Below are positions 4,262 through 27,679 of a DNA stretch of 43,192 bases, piece after piece. Within the stretch, counting starts at the first letter, position 1. Each line of letters starts with the position of its first letter. The notes below the pieces were generated by a model. The model saw only the letters and a program-made list of their open reading frames with translations. It was not told where the DNA came from and searched no databases. Both the position numbers and the translations under genes were made by a program. The stretch covers positions 1 through 43,192 of IMG/VR virus record IMGVR_UViG_3300009095_000027; one strand, given 5' to 3'. This DNA is from a virus (Duplodnaviria; Caudoviricetes).

Positions 4262-4474
4262 ATGCTCATTGAATACGTTTTGACGCGCAGCCGGCGCAAT
4301 GTGAGCGAAGCGGCCGGCAAGCGTTTGATCGCGTGCAAGGTCGCGCGCGAAGTGGTGGTCGAGACGCGGCGGGAACTGCCGGAGACGACCGCGCCGGATG
4401 TGGAAATTTCGCCGCGCACCGGCAAACCGAAGCGGCGATATAAGCGCCGCGACATGCGGGCAGAGGACGAATAA
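4262..4474 (+). CDS. small basic head-region protein
   Basis: fills the gap between capsid and portal, stop abuts portal ATG; C-terminal KRRYKRRDMRAE. Confidence 0.7.
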   Translation: MLIEYVLTRSRRNVSEAAGKRLIACKVAREVVVETRRELPETTAPDVEISPRTGKPKRRYKRRDMRAEDE

Positions 4475-5854
4475 ATGCGGATTTTCGGGCTGGAGATTAA
4501 ACGCGCGCAGAAAGCGCTGTCGCCTGTCTCTAGCTGGCGCCAGGGCTGGCGCGTGATCCATGAGCCGTACACCGGCGCGTGGCAGCGAAACGACGAGGTT
4601 CTGCACGGCGATCTGGTGTGTTACCCGACGCTGTACGCTTGTCTAAACCGCATTTCGAGCGACATCGGCAAACTGCCGTTTCTTCTCAAGCGCAAAGACA
4701 ATGACGGCATTTGGCAGGAGGAAGAAAACCCCTCTTATTCGCCGGTCTTGCGCAAGCCGAACCAGTATCAAACGGCGCAGCAATTCCGCGAGGCATGGAC
4801 GCTGTCGAAGCTGATCGCCGGCAATGCCTACATTCTCAAGCAGCGCGATAACCGTGGCGTCGTGGTCGCACTTTATGTGCTGGATCCGTGCCGCGTGATT
4901 CCGATGGTGTCTGACGCTGGCAATGTGTTCTATCAGTTGAACTACACCAGCTCGCAAAATTTACTTCCTGAAGCATACCCGGCGCAGCAAATTGTTGTTC
5001 CTGCGTCTGAAATCATTCACGATCGGCTCAACTGCTTTCACCATCAGTTGATCGGCGTGCCGCCGCTGTGCGCTGCGCACTGGCCTGCGGTGAAGAACCT
5101 CCGCATCCTGCGTTCTGCGTCTGAGTTCTTTGGGAACAACGCGCAGCCCGGCGGCATTCTGACCGCGCCGGCGGGCATGAGCGAAAAGGACGCGGAAGAA
5201 TTAAAAGAGTATTGGAACAAGAACTACAGCGGCGCTAACGCTGGTCGAATTGCGGTGATCGGTGCTGATATGAAGTTCACGCCGTTTGCGATGAAGTCTG
5301 CGGATTCGCAGTTGGTTGAGCAAATGCGCTACTCGGACGAGCAAATTTGCCAGCCGTTTGGCATTCCGCCGTTCAAGATCGGCATCGGCTCTATTCCTGC
5401 GGGGATGAAGGTCGACGACATCAATCAGCTTTATTACTCCGACGCGCTGCAGTCGCACATCGAGGCGATGGAAAACCTTCTCGATGAGGGGTTGAAGATC
5501 GGTCGTCCTCTTGGCGTTGAACTTGACCTGGAGCCGCTGCTTCGGATGGATGAAGGCAAGCGGGCCGAGGTGGCGACCAAGCTTGTAGGCGGTGGCGTCG
5601 AGACCCCGAACGAGGGACGGCTCCGGTTCAACCTCCCGCCGCTTGAAGGTGGCGATACGGTCTACATGCAGCAGCAGGACTTCCCGCTTGATCAGGTGCG
5701 CAAGAACAAGATTGTGGACGCGGCGGTCTCACAGCCCGACCCGGAGCCTGACGAAACGGAGGAAGAAGCTGAGCAGCGGCGAGCTTTAAACCTTTCTGCG
5801 GTTATGTATCACGCATCGAAGGAAATTCACCAAAGGATTCGCAATGCAGCTTGA
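4475..5854 (+). CDS. portal protein, HK97 family
   Basis: YACLNRISSDIGKLP, PNQYQTAQQF, GNAY, PGGIL, TPNEGR motifs. Confidence 0.95.
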   Translation: MRIFGLEIKRAQKALSPVSSWRQGWRVIHEPYTGAWQRNDEVLHGDLVCYPTLYACLNRISSDIGKLPFLLKRKDNDGIWQEEENPSYSPVLRKPNQYQTAQQFREAWTLSKLIAGNAYILKQRDNRGVVVALYVLDPCRVIPMVSDAGNVFYQLNYTSSQNLLPEAYPAQQIVVPASEIIHDRLNCFHHQLIGVPPLCAAHWPAVKNLRILRSASEFFGNNAQPGGILTAPAGMSEKDAEELKEYWNKNYSGANAGRIAVIGADMKFTPFAMKSADSQLVEQMRYSDEQICQPFGIPPFKIGIGSIPAGMKVDDINQLYYSDALQSHIEAMENLLDEGLKIGRPLGVELDLEPLLRMDEGKRAEVATKLVGGGVETPNEGRLRFNLPPLEGGDTVYMQQQDFPLDQVRKNKIVDAAVSQPDPEPDETEEEAEQRRALNLSAVMYHASKEIHQRIRNAA

Positions 5855-6635
5855 CGTAAAGGCGTTGGGCGTCGAGATCGGCGCCCTTGTCGCGGATGCT
5901 ATCGCGCCTCTTGCGAAGGAGATCGAGGGCTTGCGCGCCAAGGTGGCCGAACTGGAGTCCCGCGAGCCGGTTAAGGGCATCGACGGGAAAGACGGTCGCG
6001 ACGGGCAGGATGGCCAATCGGTGACGGTTGACGATGTTGCGCCGCTGATCAAAGAGTTGGTAGACAAGGCTGTTGCCGGGATCCCGCAGCCCAAAAATGG
6101 CGAGCGTGGCGAGAAGGGGGACAAAGGCGATAAAGGCGACAAGGGCGACAAGGGCGACCCAGGTGCTGACGGGAAAGACGGCGCTGGCATTGCCGACCTG
6201 CTGATTGACCGTGACGGCGTTTTAGTCGCGACGTTCACTGATGGCCGTATGAAGTCGCTTGGCTGCGTTGTTGGCCGCGATGGCAAGGATGGGCGCGACG
6301 GCAAAGACGGCCTTAGCTTTGAGCACGCTAAAGGGGTGTTCGACGCTGAGCGTGGCTTTGTAATCACGCTGACCAATGGCGAGTGTTCTGCTGAATTCGT
6401 GTTGCCATACATGCGGCACGCGGGGTTCTGGAGTGAAGGCAAGATGGCTCAGGCCGGGGTTTCTATGACGCACGATGGCGCGTTGTGGATTGCCAAGCGC
6501 GACACGAAGGCGAAGCCGTGCCTCGAAAACAGCGAGGACTGGATTCTGGCCGCGCGCAAGGGTAGGGATGGCAAAGAAGGGCCGCGAGGGCCAAAGGGCG
6601 AACCGCCTGCGCCTGTGCCGATTACGGGACGCTGA
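5844..6635 (+). CDS. collagen-like (Gly-X-Y) head-associated protein
   Basis: several GKDGRDG/GDKGDKG tracts separated by globular segments; overlaps portal stop. Confidence 0.8.
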   Translation: MQLDVKALGVEIGALVADAIAPLAKEIEGLRAKVAELESREPVKGIDGKDGRDGQDGQSVTVDDVAPLIKELVDKAVAGIPQPKNGERGEKGDKGDKGDKGDKGDPGADGKDGAGIADLLIDRDGVLVATFTDGRMKSLGCVVGRDGKDGRDGKDGLSFEHAKGVFDAERGFVITLTNGECSAEFVLPYMRHAGFWSEGKMAQAGVSMTHDGALWIAKRDTKAKPCLENSEDWILAARKGRDGKEGPRGPKGEPPAPVPITGR

Positions 6636-6651
6636 TTTCAGGCGAGAGGAC

Positions 6652-6660
6652 TGATAAAAT
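6652..6660 (+). promoter_or_regulatory. extended -10 promoter of moron
   Basis: TG-A-TAAAAT upstream of a structured leader. Confidence 0.45.
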
Positions 6661-6686
6661 CAATCGAACTTGATTTATTATTGGTT

Positions 6687-6770
6687 TGTGCGGCTAGGAT
6701 AGCTTCCGAAAGCCCCGTTTCCTACCGGGGTTGCCGCACACCTGATTAAGTAGGAGTCACGATAGGAGGT
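6687..6770 (+). ncRNA. candidate cis-regulatory leader RNA (multi-stem, anti-SD loop)
   Basis: TGTGCGGC(6687-94)/GCCGCACA(6733-40) outer stem; AGCCCCG/CGGGGTT inner stem with loop TTTCCTAC complementary to downstream GTAGGA and TAGGA(GGT). Confidence 0.55.
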
Positions 6771-6773
6771 GAC

Positions 6774-7262
6774 ATGGAAGTGAAAGAAATAGCAGAACAA
6801 GTTGCTGCTGCGTTGAGCGCTGACTTCAAGGAAGACCGCCAACTACTAAGGGATTTGGTTAAGCAGGCTACGCTAAGTCGGATTGTTAGCGAGGTAGAAA
6901 ACTACACAACAGCCGCGTTATCCAATCAATATAGCAGCGAGTTTTCAGAAATAATTGCGGCGACAATAAAAGTCTGGATTGAAAGCGGGGCGCTCAAGGT
7001 TAGGCCAACCGCAAGAGCCAAAAGAGCGTTTGAACGGACCTTGGAAGAGGTTTCATCTCCCGAGTGGGAGAGGCTGTTTCCGGCGCGGGACTGGCAAATT
7101 TATATTGCGCACAAAAGCAAGCAATCGACAAAAAAAGAACTGGCAGAGCAGTTTGATGTTAGCCAGACCAGAGTGAATCAGATAATTCGCCGCGTAGATC
7201 GTGATGTGCAGAGGACAATTGGTCTTTTAGAGTCGGTTGGGTATACAGTTTCGCCGGGATAG
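6774..7262 (+). CDS. moron protein with C-terminal sigma70 region-4-like HTH
   Basis: TAGGAGGT RBS; AT-richer than flanks; STKKELAEQFDVSQTRVNQIIRR. Confidence 0.75.
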   Translation: MEVKEIAEQVAAALSADFKEDRQLLRDLVKQATLSRIVSEVENYTTAALSNQYSSEFSEIIAATIKVWIESGALKVRPTARAKRAFERTLEEVSSPEWERLFPARDWQIYIAHKSKQSTKKELAEQFDVSQTRVNQIIRRVDRDVQRTIGLLESVGYTVSPG

Positions 7263-7281
7263 TAGGCAGATGGGATGTGAT

Positions 7282-7310
7282 AGGCCGCCATTGTGCGGCC
7301 TTTTTTTATT
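7282..7310 (+). terminator. intrinsic terminator closing the moron
   Basis: AGGCCGC...GCGGCCT stem plus T-run. Confidence 0.75.
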
Positions 7311-7321
7311 GGGTCGAATAT

Positions 7322-7750
7322 ATGTCGTTTGAACTTGTCACGATCGAGGACGCCCGCGCGCATCTGCGACTCGACTATGAGTCGGATTCGGACGGTGATA
7401 CTCATGGCCCGGACGATCCGTGGTTGCAGACGGCTATTCCCGCGATCAGCGAAGCGGTGCGCGGCTGGCTGAAAGACGACTGGCGCTTGTACCTGCCCGC
7501 GCGCGATTCAACCGGGGCGGTTGTGCTGGATAGCAACGACGACCCGGTGCCGGCCGAGGACAGCAACGGCGACCCCATTGTGCATCCGACGGTGCGACTC
7601 GCCGTGCTGGTCGAACTGGCCTCGGTGTTTCGATTCCGCGAAGGCGAAGGCAAGGACAACGTCGTCACGCCCGATGCCGGATACGGCTATGTGCTCAACA
7701 AGGCGTCCACGGCTCTGCTCACGCCGCTGCGCCGCCCGACGGTGATTTGA
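7322..7750 (+). CDS. head-tail adaptor (HK97 gp6/SPP1 gp15-like)
   Basis: LVTIEDARAHLRLD, VRLAVL, FRFREG, ALLTPLRRP. Confidence 0.85.
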   Translation: MSFELVTIEDARAHLRLDYESDSDGDTHGPDDPWLQTAIPAISEAVRGWLKDDWRLYLPARDSTGAVVLDSNDDPVPAEDSNGDPIVHPTVRLAVLVELASVFRFREGEGKDNVVTPDAGYGYVLNKASTALLTPLRRPTVI

Positions 7751-8091
7751 TGTCTGGCATCGCGTCGGGGAAACTGGAGAACCAAGTCAAACTCCAGCGC
7801 AAGATCGTCCAGCAGGATGCCATTACTGGCGAGATGAAGACCACGTGGTCCACGGCGGCGACGGTCTGGGCGGATATGAATTATCAGTCGGTCCGCGAAT
7901 TCGTGGCGGCCGGCGCCGAGCAGTCCGAGGTTCGCGGTTACGCGCAAATCCGCTATCGGTCGGATGTGGATGCGACGTGGCGAATCTTGCACCGGGGCCG
8001 ATACTACAGAATCTTGGGCGTGATGCCGGATAACGATTCCGGACTTGAGCATTTGACGCTGGCGCTATCCGAAGGCGTCCGCGTTGCCTGA
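7750..8091 (+). CDS. head closure protein (SPP1 gp16-like)
   Basis: GKLENQVKLQ, TW..ATVWA, IRYRSDV..WRI.HRGRYY.I. Confidence 0.88.
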   Translation: MSGIASGKLENQVKLQRKIVQQDAITGEMKTTWSTAATVWADMNYQSVREFVAAGAEQSEVRGYAQIRYRSDVDATWRILHRGRYYRILGVMPDNDSGLEHLTLALSEGVRVA

Positions 8092-8600
8092 TGCTGTGGT
8101 TCTGCCTTGCGCCTGGCCCTTCGATGAGCCGGGAACTGGCTGAGCGCGTCCGGGGGCAAAAGGTCTGCGTCGTTGGGAATACCTACGAGCTGGCGCCGTG
8201 GGCCGATGTGCTGGTCGCGAACGACACGAAGTGGTGGCGACTGCACCCGGAGGCTCATGGTTTCGCAGGACGGAAGTTCAGCGCGAACAAGATTGCCGGC
8301 GTCGAGCAAATCCAGCCCAACACATTCGGCAGCCGCAGCAATAGCGGCGTCTTGGCTTTGGACTGCCTGCGCAACCTGGGCGCAACCCGCGTTGTGCTGC
8401 TGGGGTTCGATATGCACGGCACGCACTTTTTTGGGCCGTACACGAACGGCTGCGCCAATACGAGCGACTTCCGCCGAAAAGCGCATCTGCAGCAGTTCAA
8501 GCAATGGCGAGCGAAGAACAAAGAAATCGAGATTTTTAACTGCACACAAGGCAGCGCCTTGAAGTGCTTCCCATTGGCGAGGTTGGAGGATGTGCTTTGA
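8091..8600 (+). CDS. CstII/Maf-like (GT42/DUF115-type Rossmann fold) putative glycosyltransferase
   Basis: CLAPGPSM, VVGN, NSGVLAL..LGATRVVLLGFDM..HFF, IFNCT..SAL motifs. Confidence 0.65.
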   Translation: MLWFCLAPGPSMSRELAERVRGQKVCVVGNTYELAPWADVLVANDTKWWRLHPEAHGFAGRKFSANKIAGVEQIQPNTFGSRSNSGVLALDCLRNLGATRVVLLGFDMHGTHFFGPYTNGCANTSDFRRKAHLQQFKQWRAKNKEIEIFNCTQGSALKCFPLARLEDVL

Positions 8601-9154
8601 GAGATGATCGGGATTCTGAGATTGCCCTGTACGTCGAGCACTACAAGTCACCGAAGTACGGGATGGGGTCGCGGCGGCAAGCCGACGTTCAGCGCATCCT
8701 GAAGGATCTGCGGCGTGGTTCGCTATTGGATGTCAGCACCGGCCGAGGGGAGACGCTGAAGTTCGCCAAGAGGCTTGGTTTTGAGCCAGTGGCGGGTACG
8801 GAGGTGGTGCCTGACCTGCTGAATGATGAAGTCGTATTCGCCCAAGCGCATAGCCTGCCGTTCGAGGACAACAGCTTCGATCACGTGACCTGCTTCGACG
8901 TGCTGGAACATTTGATTGAAGAAGACATTAGGCCCGCTCTGATGGAAATGTACCGGGTCGCCCGGATGTCCGTCACGGTCAGCGCCAGCGAGCGCCCCAG
9001 CATCTTTGGCGGAGTGGACCTGCATATCAGCAAGCGTCCGGCACCGGAGTGGCACCGGCTGATTCGGGACTGTTGGGACCGCAACACGAAGCGAATCGGC
9101 AAGGCCGGCGGGAGTCCTGCATTTCAGGTCATCAAGTATGGCCCTGTTGGCTGA
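8597..9154 (+). CDS. class I SAM-dependent methyltransferase
   Basis: LLDVSTGRG motif I, SLPFEDNSFDHVTCFDVLEHL; TTG start overlaps upstream TGA with GGAGG RBS. Confidence 0.88.
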   Translation: MRDDRDSEIALYVEHYKSPKYGMGSRRQADVQRILKDLRRGSLLDVSTGRGETLKFAKRLGFEPVAGTEVVPDLLNDEVVFAQAHSLPFEDNSFDHVTCFDVLEHLIEEDIRPALMEMYRVARMSVTVSASERPSIFGGVDLHISKRPAPEWHRLIRDCWDRNTKRIGKAGGSPAFQVIKYGPVG

Positions 9155-9845
9155 TCTGCTTCCTGCCGTCAAGGGCAGGCCAGCGGTGATCATGGGCGGG
9201 GCGCCGAGCCTGCCTGATGATGTGGAGAAGGTGAAGGGCGATGCCATCTGGTTCAGCGCCAATCAGCACGGCGCCATGCTCAGGCAGTGCGACTACATCG
9301 TCTACGTGGACCCGGTTCATCAGGTCACACGGGAGCGGATGCAGGACAAGCTGTCAGCATTCGGCGTGCCGACGATCTCGCCATGTTTCGGCGCCGACTA
9401 CCGCGTTCCGAATTGGAACGCGGCCGGGTTCCGGGGGAACTGCGGAATGCAATCCATCTGGTTCGCGTCGATGCTAGGCGCCAATCCGATCATCGTATGC
9501 GGCATGGAGTGCTACCGGGGCGGCGTGTACTGGCACGACGCGGAGGCCAAGAGTTCGAGCAAGGGCAGGCCGGAGAAGTTCTTCGACGCGCGCATTGCGG
9601 ACCTAAAGCGGCTTGTTGATGGGGCTAACATCCGTGCTGTCACGCCATCCATGCAGAAGCACTTTCCGGCCTACGATCCCGCCGAGGAGGTCAGTCCTTC
9701 GGCGGCCGCTCTGGCGGTGTCGGAGCAGGAAATAGAGGTCAGGTTCAGACGGTCAACCGTGATTGCCAAGACAAGATTCGGGGCGGGAAGCAAGGCAATG
9801 CTCACTCAATTCGAGTGTGAGCGGTGGCGGAGGTATGTGCAGTAA
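9138..9845 (+). CDS. second CstII/Maf-like putative glycosyltransferase
   Basis: AVIMGGAPSL, FSANQH, DYIVYVD, NCGMQSIWFASMLGANPIIVCGMECY motifs. Confidence 0.65.
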   Translation: MALLADLLPAVKGRPAVIMGGAPSLPDDVEKVKGDAIWFSANQHGAMLRQCDYIVYVDPVHQVTRERMQDKLSAFGVPTISPCFGADYRVPNWNAAGFRGNCGMQSIWFASMLGANPIIVCGMECYRGGVYWHDAEAKSSSKGRPEKFFDARIADLKRLVDGANIRAVTPSMQKHFPAYDPAEEVSPSAAALAVSEQEIEVRFRRSTVIAKTRFGAGSKAMLTQFECERWRRYVQ

Positions 9846-10309
9846 TGGATATCCAGGTTGATGTCCGGGGGCTCGACGAGATCGAGCGAAAGCTGCGCCT
9901 GCTTCCGGACAGGCTCGGCAACAACGCCATGCGCCGCGCTTTGCGCAAAGGCGCGAACATCGTGCGCGATGCCGCGCGCAAGAATGCGCAGAAGATCGAC
10001 GATCTGAAAACCCGCGAGCAGATTTACAAGAACATCGCCGTGTATGGCGGTGGGCGTCGGCGGGAAAAAGAAGTCGGCGGCGTCATGATGCGTGTTGGCG
10101 TCCGGGGTGGGGCGCGTCCGACTCGGGGCGATATTGCTGCGCCTGGGGGGAATACTACGCATTGGCGCTTTATAGAGTTTGGCACTTCGGAGGCATCGGC
10201 TAAGCCCTTCATGCGCCCGGCGATGAATTCGACCGCAAGCCAGGTTTTTAATGCTGTAGCAGAGTCTGCGACGAAGGAACTGGATAAGGAACTGGACAAG
10301 CTGAAATGA
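9845..10309 (+). CDS. HK97 gp10-like tail component
   Basis: GLDEIERKL, HWRFIEFGT, KPFMRPA. Confidence 0.9.
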   Translation: MDIQVDVRGLDEIERKLRLLPDRLGNNAMRRALRKGANIVRDAARKNAQKIDDLKTREQIYKNIAVYGGGRRREKEVGGVMMRVGVRGGARPTRGDIAAPGGNTTHWRFIEFGTSEASAKPFMRPAMNSTASQVFNAVAESATKELDKELDKLK

Positions 10310-10683
10310 CGCCGCCGCTATTCACATGGGTCACGGCCTCAGCCGCAGTCAAGAATCTGCTAGGCACCAACCCGACGCGCTTTTGGCCGTTCCATCAAGC
10401 GCCGCATGCGAATGATGCGGTTGCTGCGGCGCCATACGCTGTCTGGCAAGTTGTGTACGGCGCGCCGACGAATTACATCGGCACGATGCCGGATTCCGAC
10501 AACACTGGAATTCAAGTCGACTGTTATGCGGCGACGGCAACGGCGGCACGGAATGTCCTGCTTGCTCTGCGTGATGCATTTGAGCCGCATGGGATCGTGA
10601 CGAACTACAACGGCGAGGAACGTGATGCACCGACCGGGCTTTACCGTGCGGGCATGACACTGGAGTTCTGGACGGATAGATAA
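10306..10683 (+). CDS. tail terminator (DUF3168-like)
   Basis: PYAVWQVV, IQVDCYA; position between gp10-like and tail tube genes. Confidence 0.82.
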   Translation: MTPPLFTWVTASAAVKNLLGTNPTRFWPFHQAPHANDAVAAAPYAVWQVVYGAPTNYIGTMPDSDNTGIQVDCYAATATAARNVLLALRDAFEPHGIVTNYNGEERDAPTGLYRAGMTLEFWTDR

Positions 10684-10685
10684 GG

Positions 10686-10730
10686 CCCCGGTTAGGCCCG
10701 TCGGGAGACGCCCCGAAGCCGGGCATTTTT
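10686..10730 (+). terminator. probable terminator-like structure after tail terminator gene
   Basis: CCCGGTT/AGCCGGG outer stem, inner CGTC-GGGA-GACG hairpin, then TTTTT. Confidence 0.45.
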
Positions 10731-10786
10731 ACTACACCTGAGTGGCGACAGGTGTTATACCCCGCGTTTTGAGAGCGGGAGGAAGC

Positions 10787-11164
10787 ATGGCCAAAACATC
10801 AGGTTTGACGAAAGCATTCGCGTGGTTCTTTGCGTTGACCGGCGTGCTGACGGTGTACGTCGCCGCGACATCGGAGAGTTCCACGAGTGGAGGCGATGGC
10901 AGGGAAACGCTGCTGTCGAGCGGTGCATGCGCCACGGCAAAGAATGCCGTGCGTGATTATCTAAAGGCGCCGTCAACAGCAAAGTTCTCGGATTGCTATG
11001 AGGTGCGCGCGAACGAGGAAGGAACGCGCTTCTTTGTTAAAGGCCACGTTGACGCACACAACAGTTTCGGTGCGATGCTGCGTAAGGAGTATGCGGTCTT
11101 TGTCGTTATGCCAAAGGGCGGGACGATTTCAGATATGACCGCCGAGAAGATCGCAATTAATTAG
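10787..11164 (+). CDS. membrane-anchored moron protein of unknown function
   Basis: GGGAGG RBS; N-terminal TM segment AFAWFFALTGVLTVYVAA; YLKAPSTAKF and VDAHNSFGAM motifs. Confidence 0.75.
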   Translation: MAKTSGLTKAFAWFFALTGVLTVYVAATSESSTSGGDGRETLLSSGACATAKNAVRDYLKAPSTAKFSDCYEVRANEEGTRFFVKGHVDAHNSFGAMLRKEYAVFVVMPKGGTISDMTAEKIAIN

Positions 11165-11181
11165 AGCAACCAAGCTCATCA

Positions 11182-11210
11182 AGGCCCCGCCAAGTGCGGG
11201 GCTTTTTTTT
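11182..11210 (+). terminator. intrinsic terminator closing the moron
   Basis: GGCCCCGC-CAAGT-GCGGGGCT plus T-run. Confidence 0.8.
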
Positions 11211-11306
11211 GGCCCGAGTTCGGTCTGCAGGCCGAATCCGCCTGTCGTGATGACACGCGGAAACCGCGTCGTGAGACGCCACATTCCCATCTGATGGAGA
11301 AACACT

Positions 11307-11786
11307 ATGTCTTTAAACGTACAAGGGTCGCAGCTGTATTTCATTGACCCGGAAGGGTCGAACGGCGGCGAGGTTGTCGAGGTTGGTTGCGTCACCACGC
11401 TGGACGGCCTGACCGCTTCGCGTGATCAATTGGATGTCACGTGCATCAGCGACGAGGCGCGCCGCTTCGAGGCGGGCTTGCTGACGCCCGGCGCGGCGAC
11501 GTTCGCGATCTTTTTCGATCTGGACGACGAATCGCACCAGCGTATGCACGAACTGTATCGCGCGGGCACGACGCTCAAGTGGGCATTGGGCTTTTCGGAT
11601 GGCACTAGCGATCCGTCCGGCGTTGACTCCGACGGCGATTTCGTTCTGCCGACCAGCCGGTCGTTCATCACGTTCGATGGCTACATCAGCGACTTCCCTT
11701 GGTCGTTCGCTGTGGGGCAGAAGGTGACGAACAACCTTTCGGTGCAGGTTTCGGATTTCCCGGTTCTGGTTAAGGCAAGCACCTAA
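11307..11786 (+). CDS. major tail (tube) protein
   Basis: QGSQLYFIDP, DQLDVTC, GLLTPG, FDGYISDFP. Confidence 0.88.
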   Translation: MSLNVQGSQLYFIDPEGSNGGEVVEVGCVTTLDGLTASRDQLDVTCISDEARRFEAGLLTPGAATFAIFFDLDDESHQRMHELYRAGTTLKWALGFSDGTSDPSGVDSDGDFVLPTSRSFITFDGYISDFPWSFAVGQKVTNNLSVQVSDFPVLVKAST

Positions 11787-19600: not shown

Positions 19601-20599
19601 AGCACGGTTATTCGGACCCTGAAATCGACTATGCCGAGCGTCACTTATACCAGCGCGCAGCAGGTGGAGGATTTTGGCAGCAATCAGTCGGAATTGAACC
19701 TGCGTATCTATCAAATGAGTGCCCGGGTTGGGCGCGGGTATCCGCTTGAGCAGACCATCGCACGTCAGCGGTTGTGGACACCGCTCAATATGGTGAATCC
19801 GCCGAAGATCTTGCTTGATTGGAATTCGAGCGTGACGAATGCGTCGGGCAATGCGAGCCAGTGGGGAGACCGTAGCGGCAATGGATACCACTATACCCAA
19901 GGCACATCTGGGCGAAGGCCGGCGATCCTTGACGGTGAGTTGAATGGCTTGCGCGTGTTGAGTTTCGATGGTGTAGATGACTCGCTCATCAACCAGGCAG
20001 CGCAGGCCGTTATGAGAAACGTCAGCGCGGGTTGGGGGTTCTCGGTTTACAAGAAGCGCACTCAAGATACTGCAGCAACTACCATCCCCAACAGGGTATT
20101 GATTCAGTTCTCCAGGGGTGACGGTACCAGCCGATATGCTATTCATGTATCGCATGCGAGCACAGGCGAATACAACAAGTCATATATTTTTGTGCGCCCG
20201 CTGGATGCTTCGGGAGACGTTGCGTTGCGCAGATCCTCCACACCGAGATTTGGCGATTGGGTCTTGGGGTATTGGGCTTGGGACGGCGCAAACGATTCAA
20301 TACAGATTATTGAGAATGGCGGAACGCCTGAGGACTTCTCATCGCTTGGCATTGCAACCACGACATCCAACACACAGTCTAATTCTGTGCCGTCAAATAT
20401 CGGCTGTAGCCAAGATAGCACCGGCACGCGATTCGCGTTTGCCGATATAGATGTTGCATGCGTGGTGGTTGGCTCTGGCTCTTTGCCGACCGAGGACGAA
20501 ATCGACAGGTTATTTGGATGGGCGGCATGGGAACTTGACCTTGTAAACGAACTTCCGATTGGCCATCCATACAAAGACAATCCGCCGTTCTTCGACTGA
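16619..20599 (+). CDS. tail tip / host-specificity protein (GTA megatron-like) with C-terminal lectin-like domain
   Basis: YGAAIPRVYG, PAYRGLAYIVF, LLRGR-like MLRGRFGTE, WVRRTR; C-terminal SQWGDRSGNG..FDGVDD. Confidence 0.88.
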   Translation: MSGRGLGQLIGGAAGYYFFGPLGGMIGSIIGNAIDPPRGPTIHGPRLNDLSVQTSTYGAAIPRVYGTIAVHGNVFWLENNQLKEVVKKSKEGGKGGGPVSKVYTYTYYATFAVGLCKGPIQGVRRIWVGPKLIYDAGSDDLDSIVASNQSAKGFCIYYGTDDQLPDARIQADRGVDNTPAYRGLAYIVFYDLPLADFGNALPAAQIKVEVSADAEPPSDCPTIRTLAQTLPLMDLGSINSEHVISVAHDNGTLLTGRLENNSVRVERRKLDGTLIGLDKIMPVGPAETVRPPARNWPYSYFAYRGNRNCVVYNNGVRCNLEGRGYGREIIQVGDTTYAFYGGYIRAIRLMPDFDTGETGAAVVAEYGPGGEVDRHAGLSTDGEVIYAWIAHNDYNALIELDLELNEIMRWPSFNGPPNFSWMPWPIGRRILYGGTDTGDVAQQVLILNDDGTITKTCLGSTSGNHSAVRPDGLNIWYGYNKVFIPAGTPHVVGETELLSDIVAAECLLSEVLEPSDIDASSLTDEVEGYMVANPGAIRGGIDPLQAAWPFDIIQSGYKVAFRRRGGSPVLTITADELGARPAGTSFDRRLVEQREMALQLPSAVHMTYLDRQREYDVGEQRAERFRDSHPNQHNLELPIVMTADGAAQKAEVLLHLWWLERTDLEFELSPEYLALEPADVIKVVGDWGEYELRLTEIHYQSDGVQKCRAKFHSASVYMSDAKGDAGDSPEQVIGLEGPSDYVLLDVPAVVDTMDDPGFLGAMTGFTDAWPGGILFRTPDDGQTWTDIQAFAAPVTMGRAENVIGTWDFNVIDPSNVLEVRLFAGDLESVSELAMLNGANHFAYGDDGRWEIIGVMNCEEDSDGIWHLSDMLRGRFGTEWAASLHQPGDRVVLLNDPDVAFIAMSLNTVGIPFGYRGITSNATIDSDATENFTYRGVNMKPLSPVYLNGERGTNGDWTLTWVRRTRINGEWRDNVDVPVAEETEAYEIDILSSDWSTVIRTLKSTMPSVTYTSAQQVEDFGSNQSELNLRIYQMSARVGRGYPLEQTIARQRLWTPLNMVNPPKILLDWNSSVTNASGNASQWGDRSGNGYHYTQGTSGRRPAILDGELNGLRVLSFDGVDDSLINQAAQAVMRNVSAGWGFSVYKKRTQDTAATTIPNRVLIQFSRGDGTSRYAIHVSHASTGEYNKSYIFVRPLDASGDVALRRSSTPRFGDWVLGYWAWDGANDSIQIIENGGTPEDFSSLGIATTTSNTQSNSVPSNIGCSQDSTGTRFAFADIDVACVVVGSGSLPTEDEIDRLFGWAAWELDLVNELPIGHPYKDNPPFFD

Positions 20600-20606
20600 G
20601 AGTGAT

Positions 20607-21911
20607 ATGGCAAACAGCACATCGAACATCGACCTGATTCAGCAGAACCAGTCCGGGAAAGAGGTTACGGCTAATGCGTTCTTCAATGCAGCGTCCCAGG
20701 CCGCGACGTATGGCCGCAGAGCAAGCGCGTCCTCCGGGCTGACGTGGGCGTATTACGGCGGGAATGTTCGCCTATCGAGCGGCGCAACTGCGCAAATCGC
20801 GAACGGTTCGGTGACGCTTACCGCGTCGAGCACGAACTACATCGTTGCGGACAAGTCATCGGGCGCTGTCAGCGTCGGCGTTGACGATACCAATTGGAAC
20901 GACGAGGAAAACTACTGGCGTCTGTATTCCGTTGTGGTTGGCGAATCAACCGTCACAAGTTGGACAGACGCCAGAATCCTCGGGGAGTTCGGAGGCGGCG
21001 GGGGTGGAGGCGCGGTCAGCAGCGTCAACGGCCAGACGGGCGCCGTGGTATTAGACGCCGAAGATGTCGGCGCGGTTGCTTCCCTCGTACCCGGGTCTGG
21101 CATCACCGTGGACGCCTCAGACCCGCAGAACCCGATTGTTAGTGCGACCGGCGGCGGTGGAGGCCGCGAGGTTCTAACTGCGAATCGCACCTACTACGTG
21201 CGTGCAGATGGCGACGACAATAACGATGGATTGAGCAATACGGCGGGTGGGGCGTTCCGTACGATACAACGCGCAATAGACGTTTCAGCTGCGCTCGACA
21301 CATCAATCTACAATGTGACGATCAGCGTCGGTTCTGGCACCTACACTGAACCGCTAGTGCTCAAAGACCCGGTTGGCGCCGGGAGCGTGACTTTGACCGG
21401 AACGGCGGCGGTCGTGCATACCACCTCAGCGACGGCCATTACAGCGACGGCGTCACACAGATTCATTCTCGGTCCAGGTATTAAGCTGCAAACGACAACT
21501 AGCGGGAACGGAATCACCTCGACCGGGAGCACGATATTCCTCGATAGCGTTGAGTTTGGCCCGTGCGTGGGGGCGCATCTATTCGCTAACGCGGGATCGT
21601 ATGTGCAAATCCGGCAAAACTACACCATATCCGGCGGCGCTTCTGACCATGTGCAATGCGCAAACAGCTATGTCCAGTATTTGAGCGGGCTGACCGTCAC
21701 GCTGACAGGCGCGCCAGCGTTTACCGGCGCGTTCGCACGCGCGATCCGCGTCGGCGTCTTTGCCGCCCCAAATGCAACTTTCACTGGAACGGCGACCGGA
21801 ACCCGGTACATATTGACGACAAACTCGGTGATTGATACCGCTGGCGGTGGCGCTTCTTATCTGCCTGGGAGCGCGTCGGGATCGGCAGCGACGGGAGGAC
21901 AATATGTCTGA
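20607..21911 (+). CDS. tail fibre/spike protein
   Basis: Gly hinges, VSSVNGQTGAV, RTYYVRADGDDNNDGL..AFRTIQRAID start of a beta-helix domain. Confidence 0.8.
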   Translation: MANSTSNIDLIQQNQSGKEVTANAFFNAASQAATYGRRASASSGLTWAYYGGNVRLSSGATAQIANGSVTLTASSTNYIVADKSSGAVSVGVDDTNWNDEENYWRLYSVVVGESTVTSWTDARILGEFGGGGGGGAVSSVNGQTGAVVLDAEDVGAVASLVPGSGITVDASDPQNPIVSATGGGGGREVLTANRTYYVRADGDDNNDGLSNTAGGAFRTIQRAIDVSAALDTSIYNVTISVGSGTYTEPLVLKDPVGAGSVTLTGTAAVVHTTSATAITATASHRFILGPGIKLQTTTSGNGITSTGSTIFLDSVEFGPCVGAHLFANAGSYVQIRQNYTISGGASDHVQCANSYVQYLSGLTVTLTGAPAFTGAFARAIRVGVFAAPNATFTGTATGTRYILTTNSVIDTAGGGASYLPGSASGSAATGGQYV

Positions 21912-22717: not shown

Positions 22718-23025
22718 AGCGCCCAGCATCTCTCCGCATAGTAGGGAAGAGGGTGCGCGTTGAGTACAAGCCAGATTTCCCCGATTACGGCGAGTCTTTC
22801 TTTGTAGAGCAGCGCATCACGATTCGGGACGGCCTTCCGCTCAACAACGAGCAAGACACGCTCTTGCACGAAGCTATCCATTTCTTAGAGGACGCGGCCA
22901 ACCTTGAGTTGAGTGAGAAGCAAGTCACCGTCCTCGCAACGATGCTGCTTGGGTTCTTTCACGATAACCCGAGCTTTGCGCGGTATCTCTTACGGCGGGA
23001 AAAGGGCGATCCGAATGCGCGTTAA
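22714..23025 (+). CDS. small HEXXH zincin-like protein
   Basis: EQDTLLHEAIH motif and LSEKQV; ATGA coupling with upstream gene. Confidence 0.7.
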   Translation: MKRPASLRIVGKRVRVEYKPDFPDYGESFFVEQRITIRDGLPLNNEQDTLLHEAIHFLEDAANLELSEKQVTVLATMLLGFFHDNPSFARYLLRREKGDPNAR

Positions 23026-23920
23026 AGTTTCTGACGCAGTGGTGGTTGAAACGCTTAAGCGGTTTAACGGTAATAAGACGCAAGCAGCGAGCGCGCTCGG
23101 ATTAAACCTGCGTTCCTTTATTCGCAGGGTGCAGGGTCTGGAGCAGCGCGGCTTAGTCGTGACGGGGGAGGGGAAGCCGAGGGCGGAATACACGCTGCCC
23201 GATGGTGAAATCATTGTTTTCTCGGATGCTCACTTTTACCCCGGCGTTGATACCCCTGCTTTTATCGGTCTGCTTCAAGTCATCGAGAAGCTAAAGCCCA
23301 AAGCGGTCATCTGTAACGGTGATGCGTTTGATGGGGCTTCTATTTCTCGCCATCCGCGTATCGGTTGGGACAAGGCTCCTACGGTTAAACAGGAGCTAGA
23401 GGCGGTCCAGGATTCACTTCATCGAATCCAGCAAGCGGCTGGGGGTGCCAAACTGTTCTGGCCGCTAGGGAACCATGATGCGCGGTTTGAGACTCGCTTG
23501 GCTGCGCAGGCCCCCGAATATGAGGGCGTGTTCGGCTTCTCTTTAAAGGATCATTTCCCGGCGTGGATCCCTTGCTGGTCGGTGATGGTGAACAACAACA
23601 CCATGATTAAACACCGCTGGCATAACGGCGTGCACGCGGCTTACAACAACGTCCTAAAGGCTGGCGTCTCCATCGTTACGGGGCACCTGCACAGCCTCAA
23701 GGTCACGCCCTACACGGACTACACGGGCGACCGTTACGGCGTGGATACGGGAACGCTTGCAGACCCGACCGGCCCACAATTCCTCTATGTCGAAGATAAC
23801 CCGCTCAACTGGCGCGCGGGCTTTGTCGTGCTGACGTTCCGGGACGGGAAGTTGATGCCGCCCGAACTGGCGCAGGTGGTGGATGAGCAACTGTATTTCC
23901 GAGGTGAGTTCTATGACTGA
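23015..23920 (+). CDS. calcineurin-like metallophosphoesterase with N-terminal Fis-like HTH
   Basis: SDAH, NGDAFD, GNHD, KH, GHLH motifs; N-terminal GNKTQAASALGL. Confidence 0.88.
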   Translation: MRVKVSDAVVVETLKRFNGNKTQAASALGLNLRSFIRRVQGLEQRGLVVTGEGKPRAEYTLPDGEIIVFSDAHFYPGVDTPAFIGLLQVIEKLKPKAVICNGDAFDGASISRHPRIGWDKAPTVKQELEAVQDSLHRIQQAAGGAKLFWPLGNHDARFETRLAAQAPEYEGVFGFSLKDHFPAWIPCWSVMVNNNTMIKHRWHNGVHAAYNNVLKAGVSIVTGHLHSLKVTPYTDYTGDRYGVDTGTLADPTGPQFLYVEDNPLNWRAGFVVLTFRDGKLMPPELAQVVDEQLYFRGEFYD

Positions 23921-25946: not shown

Positions 25947-26459
25947 CTATGCGGTCTCAGGCTCCCACGCTTCGGAAAAGTCATCTTCCTCAAAAAGCTC
26001 CGCCAAGCCACTGACCTGCTTGAGACGTAGAACCTCGTCGGCGTCCATGCCAAGCTCTTTGGCAATCTTCGCATCGCTCCAATTGCGGCGAGAGAGTTCG
26101 ACCACAATATCGGACATGCTCGCGATCTTATGCTTACCCCTGGCTCGATTGTGACGGATCGTAGATGCGATGCGATCATTGCGATCCGTGCTCTCTTGAT
26201 TCACCACCACCACAGGCAGGTGTGAAAGCCCAATTTCTTTGCCCACCAGGTGGCGGTGGAACCCGTCCACGACCTCATACACACCATCCTCGCGCAGCCA
26301 TGTCACTATCGGTTGGGTGTATCCGTCGGCCTCGATACTGCGGCGTAACAGGTCCATTTCTGGTTTTGCTACGGAGTTAGGGTTGTAGTCGTTTGCCTCC
26401 ACCTTATCGGTGGACACCCACTGCACATTGCTAACCGGGTGCTTTTTAGTCCATTCCAT
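25947..26459 (-). CDS. ibrB: ParB/Srx-like protein (IbrB/YbdM-like)
   Basis: ANDYNPN, GYTQPIV, VVDGFHR, STIRHNRARG, ELGMDADEVLRL. Confidence 0.88.
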   Translation of the reverse strand: MEWTKKHPVSNVQWVSTDKVEANDYNPNSVAKPEMDLLRRSIEADGYTQPIVTWLREDGVYEVVDGFHRHLVGKEIGLSHLPVVVVNQESTDRNDRIASTIRHNRARGKHKIASMSDIVVELSRRNWSDAKIAKELGMDADEVLRLKQVSGLAELFEEDDFSEAWEPETA

Positions 26460-27679
26460 TATGCAACTCTCCCGTATGTTTTTTCTCTTTCGGCCTTCAT
26501 TCGTTTCATATATCGCTCATAGAAGAAGCCGTGTTTTGTTTGGGTAAAACTCAGGCCCTTAGCCCAATAATCATTTCTCAGCAGCATCTTTGCGATGCGA
26601 CGCCAGCTAGGCGCTTTGCGGGCGGCTTCAAGCTTGGGGTCAGCCTCGTCGGGGATTCCAGTGGGGTAACCCTTGTTAGCCCACCAGCGCAAAAATACAA
26701 AGATTTTGTTCTCGTAGTGTTCGCGCATGTGCGTTGGCATTGATTCCAACAACACCTGACTAAACGATTCCCATGTATGTCCGTCTGGCTTGCTAATCCG
26801 GACCTGCCCGCTGGCGTTGCCATTGAACTGTACAAACTCTGCTCCCGAGTTGACCCCGGCTACCCGTGCCACAATCGCGGCCCACGTCTCAGGCTCAATT
26901 ACGTGATATAGCCATAGCCCCTTGCGCTGGTCGTCGCCGTAGGGTTGGCAAATCCGCTGCTGGTGGATTGATAGTCCGGCTTGGTGCATCAGGTCGTAGA
27001 GTCTGTTATATCGCTTCCTAGTCTTGCCTAAATAGCGCCACACGTCCTCAGTGCGCCAATCATAGATTGGGTAACAGTTATAGACCTGCGTATCCCATAG
27101 CTTCGTGGTCCAACACCGTCCGCCGAATGTTTTTTTCTTTTGGTTAGTAATCGTGCGGAACCTGTTAAGCGATTCGTCTGTGCGAATGCCAACTAGACAG
27201 GCAGTTGGCTGGCCTTGCGAGTACCATTCCCCGAACTTCGGCACGAAGTCCTCGAACTCCATTCCGCGCTCGAAAAACGGGAAAAATGATTCGTCCGTTA
27301 TGCTGCGAGGATCAGGCTGACGGACCCAAATGTTTTTCGCGTTGGGGTCCCAACAAAGCCATTTTGGCTGATAGACGCTAACGGCATTCCTTAGCGCTAT
27401 AGGGAGCGCAATCCAGTAGACATCAACGCAATCTTGATACTCATCAAGCATTTCTTGGATATGGTTGATCGTGTGCTGATATTGCGCCTCAAGATCAACA
27501 ATTAACACCGCGAACCGTCTGCCGGTTTTGCGCGCTTCATTTGCCGCCAAATGGAACATAACGGCGGAATCCTTGCCTCCCGAGAATGACAGGTATATGC
27601 GCGGGAAAAACTTGAATACGTCAGCGATTCGCTGGCGTGCCGCAGTCAGAACATCAATCCCAAGCCCGCGCTTCGGCAT
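26459..27679 (-). CDS. ibrA: PAPS-reductase-family PP-loop protein with DUF3440 (IbrA/YbdN-like)
   Basis: SFSGGKDS, GIRTDES, YPIYDW, RICQPYGDDQR, PSWRRI..LLRNDYW. Confidence 0.9.
   Translation of the reverse strand: MPKRGLGIDVLTAARQRIADVFKFFPRIYLSFSGGKDSAVMFHLAANEARKTGRRFAVLIVDLEAQYQHTINHIQEMLDEYQDCVDVYWIALPIALRNAVSVYQPKWLCWDPNAKNIWVRQPDPRSITDESFFPFFERGMEFEDFVPKFGEWYSQGQPTACLVGIRTDESLNRFRTITNQKKKTFGGRCWTTKLWDTQVYNCYPIYDWRTEDVWRYLGKTRKRYNRLYDLMHQAGLSIHQQRICQPYGDDQRKGLWLYHVIEPETWAAIVARVAGVNSGAEFVQFNGNASGQVRISKPDGHTWESFSQVLLESMPTHMREHYENKIFVFLRWWANKGYPTGIPDEADPKLEAARKAPSWRRIAKMLLRNDYWAKGLSFTQTKHGFFYERYMKRMKAEREKTYGRVA

Follow-up and report, generated by a model that had tools for sequence, protein, structure and literature searches.

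A putative Maf-fold glycosylation cassette among the virion genes of a temperate tailed phage

We analysed a three-gene cassette in IMG/VR record IMGVR_UViG_3300009095_000027, a tailed-phage (Caudoviricetes) sequence of 43,192 nucleotides (nt) that is estimated to be 85% complete and that we call, at its full length, the window. The cassette lies between the head-closure gene Hc1 and an HK97 gp10-like neck gene, and it encodes two putative transferases, GTa and GTb, on either side of a methyltransferase (Table 1). We find that the cassette is real and widespread. Its genes are not new, merely uncharacterised, because PHROG 4603, to which GTa belongs, has already been labelled and is found in phages P1, P7, D3 and PAJU2. 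The explanation that we favour, and to which we give about an even chance of being right, is that this late-expressed accessory cassette builds a short methylated glycan of the Kdo (3-deoxy-D-manno-octulosonate) type on a head or neck protein of the virion.

A recurrent slot among the virion genes

Nearly all of the best 80 viral GTa loci have the gene among portal, Ad1, head-closure and gp10 genes. To lessen circularity, the slot census itself used 80 loci recruited through an Ad1 profile; a control recruitment by the collagen-like protein was dropped (mostly generic collagen repeats), and a single-protein search with gp10 matched nothing. In 47 Ad1 loci both borders of the slot were visible: a GTa-superfamily gene is present in 40 of them, the slot is empty in 7, and in none is it filled by other genes alone; since cassette-bearing phages supplied the Ad1 profile and there is redundancy among the loci, 40/47 is no estimate of frequency, and the pattern is the informative part. 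Cultured phages represent both states, with an empty slot in SOVA965 and the same slot filled in PAJU2. An earlier reading of the window made from its letters only (the sequence-only reading) had placed the cassette inside the neck operon, and across related phages its position is indeed fixed among virion-assembly genes.

What accompanies GTa in this slot varies widely. GTa stands alone in three loci (L038, L084 and L316), and elsewhere up to six or seven partners follow it downstream, among them several methyltransferase families, GT2, GT8-like, GT-D and MUCI70-like proteins, sulfotransferases and a 2-oxoglutarate (2OG) oxygenase, with some clusters unnamed. One partner family is KpsC-like (PF05159 over its cut-off in 2 of the 20 proteins scanned; Protein Data Bank (PDB) match at E 0.006), and another, which includes PAJU2 ORF11 and D3 orf12, is GT9-like and matches heptosyltransferase II (E 0.0012). 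Nucleotide-sugar enzymes are present in one GTb locus (L095), and fusions to GT9, GT34 and a pyruvyl transferase also occur. Locus L088 has the same trio as the window but a different GTa-clade gene, and a close compost contig (about 92-99% alike where aligned) keeps GTa while other sequence replaces the methyltransferase and GTb. Because partners vary and are swapped while GTa stays, GTa behaves as the gene that primes and the others as exchangeable modules for elaboration. In unrelated head modules, GTb-like genes are neighbours of genes for terminase, portal or capsid. A large GTb subclade (L104-L166) is without the C-terminal tail domain of the window's GTb, and its members mostly stand alone between terminase and portal or directly behind portal. 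Some cassettes also contain a weak ATP-grasp-like protein with a glycerophosphodiesterase-family protein (L008:5494-6369, L257:2691-3374, L272:8189-9094), which suggests amide or phosphodiester tailoring; inside large cassettes we observed a 2OG-Fe(II) oxygenase (PF13640; L010:3114-3839, L286, L295, L302) that could act on sugar, collagen-like protein or DNA.

In the window, the sequence confirms all three open reading frames (ORFs) and their junctions, as expected from the description of three overlapping, non-structural-looking genes between head closure and gp10. Hc1 and GTa share 1 nt (TGATG, 8089-8093), the methyltransferase and GTb overlap by 17 nt (9138-9154), and GTb meets gp10 at TAATG (9843-9847). 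GTa and the methyltransferase join at TTGA (8597-8600), and because GGAGG sits 7 nt upstream, TTG 8597 is most likely the methyltransferase start; the 185 amino acids (aa) encoded from this codon compare with 184-185 aa in 3 of the 5 best methyltransferase matches. Such overlapping junctions are ordinary for this operon, since the flanking structural genes (Ad1/Hc1 and gp10/terminator) overlap likewise. Neither a promoter (scan of 6500-11400) nor a terminator (scan inside the cassette) was found, which agrees with the claim that the cassette has none of its own, but the missing promoter is weak evidence because shuffled sequences yield only 1.5 promoter-like sites where 0 were found. GC content at third codon positions (GC3) is 0.76 for GTa, 0.72 for the methyltransferase and 0.78 for GTb, within the 0.64-0.80 of the structural genes and above the 0.48 of an HTH (helix-turn-helix) moron; this equality with the structural genes rules out recent insertion of the cassette as a low-GC moron. 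Position in the operon points to late co-expression with the virion genes. Most of the sequence of the methyltransferase and GTb genes is also present in contigs from an independent compost study (runs X2 and X3), at ~97-99.8% identity (1-10 differences in stretches of 176-410 nt), and neither gene is therefore an assembly artefact.

Fold and family of the cassette proteins

GTa matches PHROG 4603 over its full length (residues 7-169), and GTb matches it only partially (E 8e-4); the label of this family is already 'alpha-2,3-sialyltransferase'. Matches to GTa occur in 73 cultured-phage records, including P1 PmgO, P7 HdmB, D3 orf7, PAJU2 ORF10 and CcrColossus gp126, and GTb has 19 matches, itself included. 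Against PF01973, GTb reaches 25.9 bits where the cut-off is 34.6, and GTa has no match; neither protein matches PF06002 (CST-I), to which 1 of 63 family members does have a match (E 4e-4). Judged by these sequence-family tests, neither GTa nor GTb passes as GT42 or Maf. Among the 63 members NCBIfam offered no credible family name, and in 47 of them the Pfam label (E up to 0.1) is MptE-like only. PDB searches with GTa as a single sequence or as the A1 profile returned chance matches only, and no transmembrane segment was predicted.

Both proteins carry the CstII/Maf motif order attributed to them by the sequence-only reading: PGPS(8-11), N30, D45, NSG(84-86) and G105-x-D107 in GTa, and GGAPS(20-24), N42, D58, NCG(101-103) and G122-x-E124 in GTb. 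Residues D45, S85, G86, G105, D107 and H112 are invariant in 120/120 GTa-family sequences, and H132 is conserved in 116/120. In a fold search that took in 48,161 chains, the best match of both predicted models (predicted local distance difference test, pLDDT, 97 for GTa and 92 for GTb) is the Maf structure 5mu5, at Z 13.9 for GTa (root-mean-square deviation (rmsd) 3.0, 156 aligned) and Z 11.4 for GTb (rmsd 4.6, 191 aligned). CstI (2p56) follows at Z 10.3 and 9.3, and the GT42-type variant GT-A fold is present together with the motif order. With Foldseek, the top-ranked matches are Maf and CstII for GTa (E about 1e-3) and CstI for GTb (E 7.8e-5). The proposed CstII/Maf fold is upheld in that Maf comes out on top with CstI and CstII close, although MptE and thiamine pyrophosphokinases (TPK) tie with CstI. 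Because of this tie the proposal passes only half of its own refutation test, and it is the sequence profile and the gene context that tell transferase and kinase apart. A joint 63-member profile (A3) finds CstII at E 1.3e-7 and the MptE kinase HPPK at E 0.071, aligning to HPPK over just 28 N-terminal positions, and this sequence profile separates transferase from kinase better than the fold does. With the same profile, 12,206 clusters are retrieved at E <= 0.001 and 3,466 at 1e-10, numbers in which bacterial superfamily members will be counted. GTa and GTb are distant homologues of each other (hhalign 86%, 18% identity), and a tree of 42 selected rows separates their clades (100/100); together these results rule out that GTb arose from GTa by recent duplication.

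Comparison with characterized enzymes shows where the two proteins depart from them. Residues D272, S334 and D357 of CbMaf, and E324 and D415 of Maf, are reported as essential for activity, and Maf is reported to put Kdo on Ser/Thr in E. coli, in the accessible text of 10.1101/2020.06.03.131540. On the basis of spacing and aligned range alone, GTa D45/S85/D107 and GTb D58/C102/E124 probably correspond to this acid-Ser-acid set, and the Ser-to-Asp spacing is 22 in GTa against 23 in CbMaf (S334/D357). Relative to the Maf proteins (M. magneticum 5mu5, CbMaf and GkMaf), GTa and GTb comprise the catalytic core only, with between a quarter and a third of the Maf length, and are encoded in a phage structural operon and in no flagellin locus; GTb in addition has a DUF7210-like tail and Cys/Glu variants. 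The GT42 enzymes CstI and CstII share the motif order and provide the best sequence-profile match, but GTa and GTb are shorter and about 15% identical to them. The profile alignment ends before the region of the GT42 lid domain and catalytic His188; GTa has the conserved H132.

The middle gene encodes a class I S-adenosylmethionine (SAM)-dependent methyltransferase, as had been proposed, with a PF08241 match over the Pfam cut-off and a glycine-rich motif I of the Methyltransf_11/25 type. Residues D45, G49 and R50 are invariant in 48 sequences, a homologue search gave 153 proteins, and the PDB profile matches include D-glucose O-methyltransferase (E 3.9e-7) among generic methyltransferases.

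Donor, acceptor and competing readings

On the explanation that we favour, the cassette would be expressed with the late operon, and GTa would prime the glycan by transferring an ulosonic acid activated with cytidine monophosphate (CMP), most likely host CMP-Kdo, onto Ser/Thr of an acceptor, as Maf does on flagellin. GTb would then add a second such sugar or serve a second site, its DUF7210-like tail bringing it to the head, the methyltransferase would cap or tailor the sugar, and swapping of downstream modules would diversify the coat. Where the sequence-only reading had left the donor as a nonulosonate or a Kdo-type sugar, Kdo is the better guess and a nonulosonate the less likely one, because CMP-Kdo is made by every host that bears lipopolysaccharide (LPS), the ORFs scanned in the window included no recognisable gene for sugar synthesis, and enzymes like KpsC and WaaZ, which occur as neighbours, use Kdo.

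The C-terminal tail of GTb offers a candidate route to the head. At least 10 bits against a tail-domain profile were reached by 33 of 82 new-representative tails, and against a standalone post-capsid profile, seeded from 14 small proteins picked by position behind the capsid gene, by 10 of 82; shuffled sequences gave 0/1640 in each case. The Pfam family DUF7210 is weakly matched in 7 of 95 longer representatives; it is also matched in 2 of 7 tails and in standalone post-capsid proteins (best E 2e-7), position-matched relatives of the window's 70-aa protein among them. A separate fusion of the tail domain occurs within the GTa clade (L291). The DUF7210-like tail is a possible head-docking module. 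The small post-capsid protein, which has a basic tail, is present in empty-slot phages too. The small domain had no PDB match in two sequence-profile searches, and our literature search, from which subscription papers were mostly absent, found no paper on DUF7210 in phage. The collagen-like protein is unsupported as a cassette-specific acceptor, since cassette-bearing and empty-slot loci both have it.

Other phages carry related sets, including P1 PmgO/PmgP/PmgQ, P7 HdmB-D, D3 orf7/12/13, PAJU2 ORF10-12 and CcrColossus gp126-131, and GTa is 30-35% identical to P1 PmgO, D3 orf7 and PAJU2 ORF10. PAJU2 has a GT9-like gene and a methyltransferase in the same slot, and its ORF10 is annotated 'structural protein' (annotation basis not stated). 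P1, like the window, has two Maf-fold genes, whereas the second transferase of the window comes from the distant GTb clade. In D3, the orf7 match (L003:5816-6409) begins at 5864, upstream of the annotated start at 5951, and the deposited start may be too late. The virion-glycosylating enzymes of mycobacteriophages are not known to have the Maf fold. Virion glycosylation itself has been shown by experiment on capsid and tail tube of mycobacteriophages (Freeman et al. 2023, as relayed in PMC12619734); phage-encoded transferases are proposed to glycosylate virion proteins there, and the host phylum differs from that of the window phage. The available text of PMC10695390 describes P1 pmgO/P/Q as non-essential, and in-frame P1 deletions of pmgO, pmgP and pmgQ are listed in PMC9024508. 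One phage paper (PMC12772287) names a gene of this kind and speculates about an interaction with exopolysaccharide. Among the papers listed, the literature search returned none on the cassette or its function and none tying D3 or PAJU2 to glycosylation.

A number of observations weigh against a virion glycan. GTa and GTb (169 and 235 aa) are without the large acceptor-binding domains of the 632-residue Maf chain, and GTb has C102 and E124 where S and D stand in most relatives. The fold is shared with the MptE kinase HPPK (Z 10.1/9.9), TPK (Z 9.8) and SteA (Z 10.6/9.8), and since CstI scores in the same narrow band, fold alone cannot part transferase from kinase. With the long-form standalone profile, the window's own GTb tail reaches -1.6 bits, its link to the post-capsid protein running through the family; a direct comparison of tail and standalone profiles failed with 49 sequences, mostly short forms, and succeeded only once 15 long forms had been chosen by eye (80%; score 25, where 100 shuffles reached at most 14.5). 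Among the closest named neighbours of the family and its partners are the LPS and capsule enzymes WaaZ, WaaF and KpsC, and in P0319 a GTb-family domain is joined to a Nu1/DUF1441 domain that resembles a terminase small subunit. The P1 pmg genes lie outside the head genes with a predicted sigma-70 promoter, and the paper on the P1 virion proteome does not name PmgO, PmgP or PmgQ in its main text. No glycosylated virion from a Gram-negative host was found in the literature search, and the accessible text of PMC12894461 reports a negative glycoprotein stain in ten phages, whose cassette content is unchecked.

The LPS and capsule enzymes among these neighbours raise the alternative that the cassette remodels the host LPS core or capsule linker in lytic growth, by a WaaZ-like Kdo transferase with heptosyl, Kdo and methyl tailoring, blocking superinfection or the sticking of progeny to debris. 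WaaZ, the Kdo III transferase of E. coli LPS, uses CMP-Kdo, has the same superfamily motif order and groups with PmgP in the tree on a long branch; Atlas structural neighbours carry WaaZ_KDO_III, the heptosyltransferase II-like and KpsC-like partners fit such a role, and core transferases are soluble and work at the cytoplasmic face. Yet similarity to WaaZ is weak, short of significance in a comparison with a single WaaZ sequence (hhalign 5.8% and 0.5%), WaaZ acts on LPS from a chromosomal waa locus, and the genes studied here recur at head and neck positions across unrelated phages. The cassette also has no moron traits, being operon-embedded, native in GC3 and free of a terminator of its own, unlike two nearby morons; the tail domain of GTb resembles a post-capsid protein; and P1 pmgN-Q are annotated behind a C1 operator, which argues against lysogenic conversion. 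We regard LPS or capsule remodelling as unlikely.

Modification of phage DNA, or of a DNA-bound internal protein, at packaging is more doubtful still, even with many GTb relatives between terminase and portal, the terminase-like fusion of P0319, a second fusion of a GTb-family domain to an HTH (P0318), the basic tail of the small post-capsid protein and the 2OG-Fe(II) oxygenase of some cassettes. Phage DNA glycosyltransferases are described in the accessible part of 10.1101/2023.12.21.572611. The ORFs scanned in this incomplete record, however, included no recognisable gene for base hydroxylation, and variable multi-transferase partner sets suit the building of an oligosaccharide better. We know of no enzyme of the Maf/CstII fold that acts on DNA. 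Acceptors other than virion protein, LPS or capsule, or DNA appear improbable. Least probable in our estimate is that GTa and GTb are nucleotide-using enzymes like MptE or thiamine pyrophosphokinase, or non-catalytic scaffolds: HPPK, TPK and SteA score near Z 10 and MptE-like is the only Pfam label, but the profile favours CstII by five orders of magnitude, glycan enzymes are both neighbours and fusion partners, and PF01973 includes the Maf core domain too, according to the accessible text of 10.1101/2020.06.03.131540.

Genomic setting and implications

Family scans order the genes of the window as terminase, protease, HK97-type capsid, 70-aa protein, portal, collagen-like protein, HTH gene, Ad1 and head closure, then GTa, methyltransferase, GTb, gp10, tail terminator, tail tube and tape measure, followed by lysis genes, integrase and replication genes. 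This gene content marks the phage as temperate, long-tailed, HK97-like and integrase-bearing. The nearest relatives of GTa in bacterial genomes are on Luteimonas (72%) and Stenotrophomonas contigs, and phage neck genes flank them in 4 of 5 of these loci, the fifth being a 2-kb contig; a Xanthomonadales-type host is therefore likely, in keeping with the proteobacterial host proposed earlier.

Table 1. Coordinates of the cassette, its borders and candidate partner features in the window
Feature	Position	Strand	Evidence
GTa, 169-aa Maf/CstII-fold putative transferase, PHROG 4603, fixed core gene	8091..8600	+	PHROG E 1.7e-35; fold Z 13.9
Class I SAM-dependent methyltransferase, 185 aa, exchangeable module	8597..9154	+	PF08241 E 9.7e-13
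GTb, 235-aa Maf/CstII-fold putative transferase, second distant clade, exchangeable module	9138..9845	+	Fold Z 11.4
GTb C-terminal ~42-aa domain, family DUF7210-like	9717..9842	+	Family-level profile matches
70-aa small post-capsid protein, short standalone form, candidate adaptor/acceptor (inferred)	4262..4474	+	PHROG 10209 E 0.0017
Post-portal collagen-like protein, candidate surface acceptor	5844..6635	+	PHROG 1289
Head closure Hc1, left slot border	7750..8091	+	PF05521 E 8.3e-22; PHROG 25
HK97 gp10-like neck gene, right slot border	9845..10309	+	PF04883 E 7.4e-11; ATG 9845

Two morons lie in the structural operon (6774-7301 and 10742-11205), each followed by a terminator-like hairpin and both absent from the close compost relative; one encodes a low-GC HTH protein (gene 6774-7262) and the other belongs to PHROG 13160. 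Behind the tail tip gene, a 450-aa ORF (20559-21911) without Pfam or PHROG match is a probable receptor-binding protein. A metallophosphoesterase gene with an N-terminal HTH (22913-23920, PHROG 221) precedes the lysis genes and may be compared with the P1 phosphatase gene ppp inside the pmgO-Q operon. Between the lysis genes and the integrase, on the minus strand at 25947-27679, are a ParB-like gene and a gene for a phosphoadenosine phosphosulfate (PAPS)-reductase/DUF3440 protein, a pair that is possibly DNA-modifying or IbrAB-like.

A wider generalization, which we offer tentatively and hold to be somewhat improbable, is that a modular glyco-coat is widespread in tailed phages of Gram-negative bacteria, with a minimal Maf-fold primer that draws on host CMP-Kdo to O-glycosylate a head or neck protein, a DUF7210-like domain for docking enzymes to the head, and swappable transferases and methyltransferases that give rise to glycan 'serotypes', and with P1 pmgO/P/Q and D3 orf7/12/13 as overlooked members. 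The question is open to direct test with the P1 pmg deletions and with cultured phages that have (PAJU2) or do not have (SOVA965) the cassette in the same slot. If virion glycosylation by the cassette is true, it would give a function to the 'putative morphogenetic' genes of P1, and protein ulosonate transferases of as few as 169 aa would be useful tools for glyco-engineering. If phages of Gram-negative bacteria do carry a Kdo-type coat, this would bear on their recognition by antibodies, on adsorption and on which phages are chosen for therapy.

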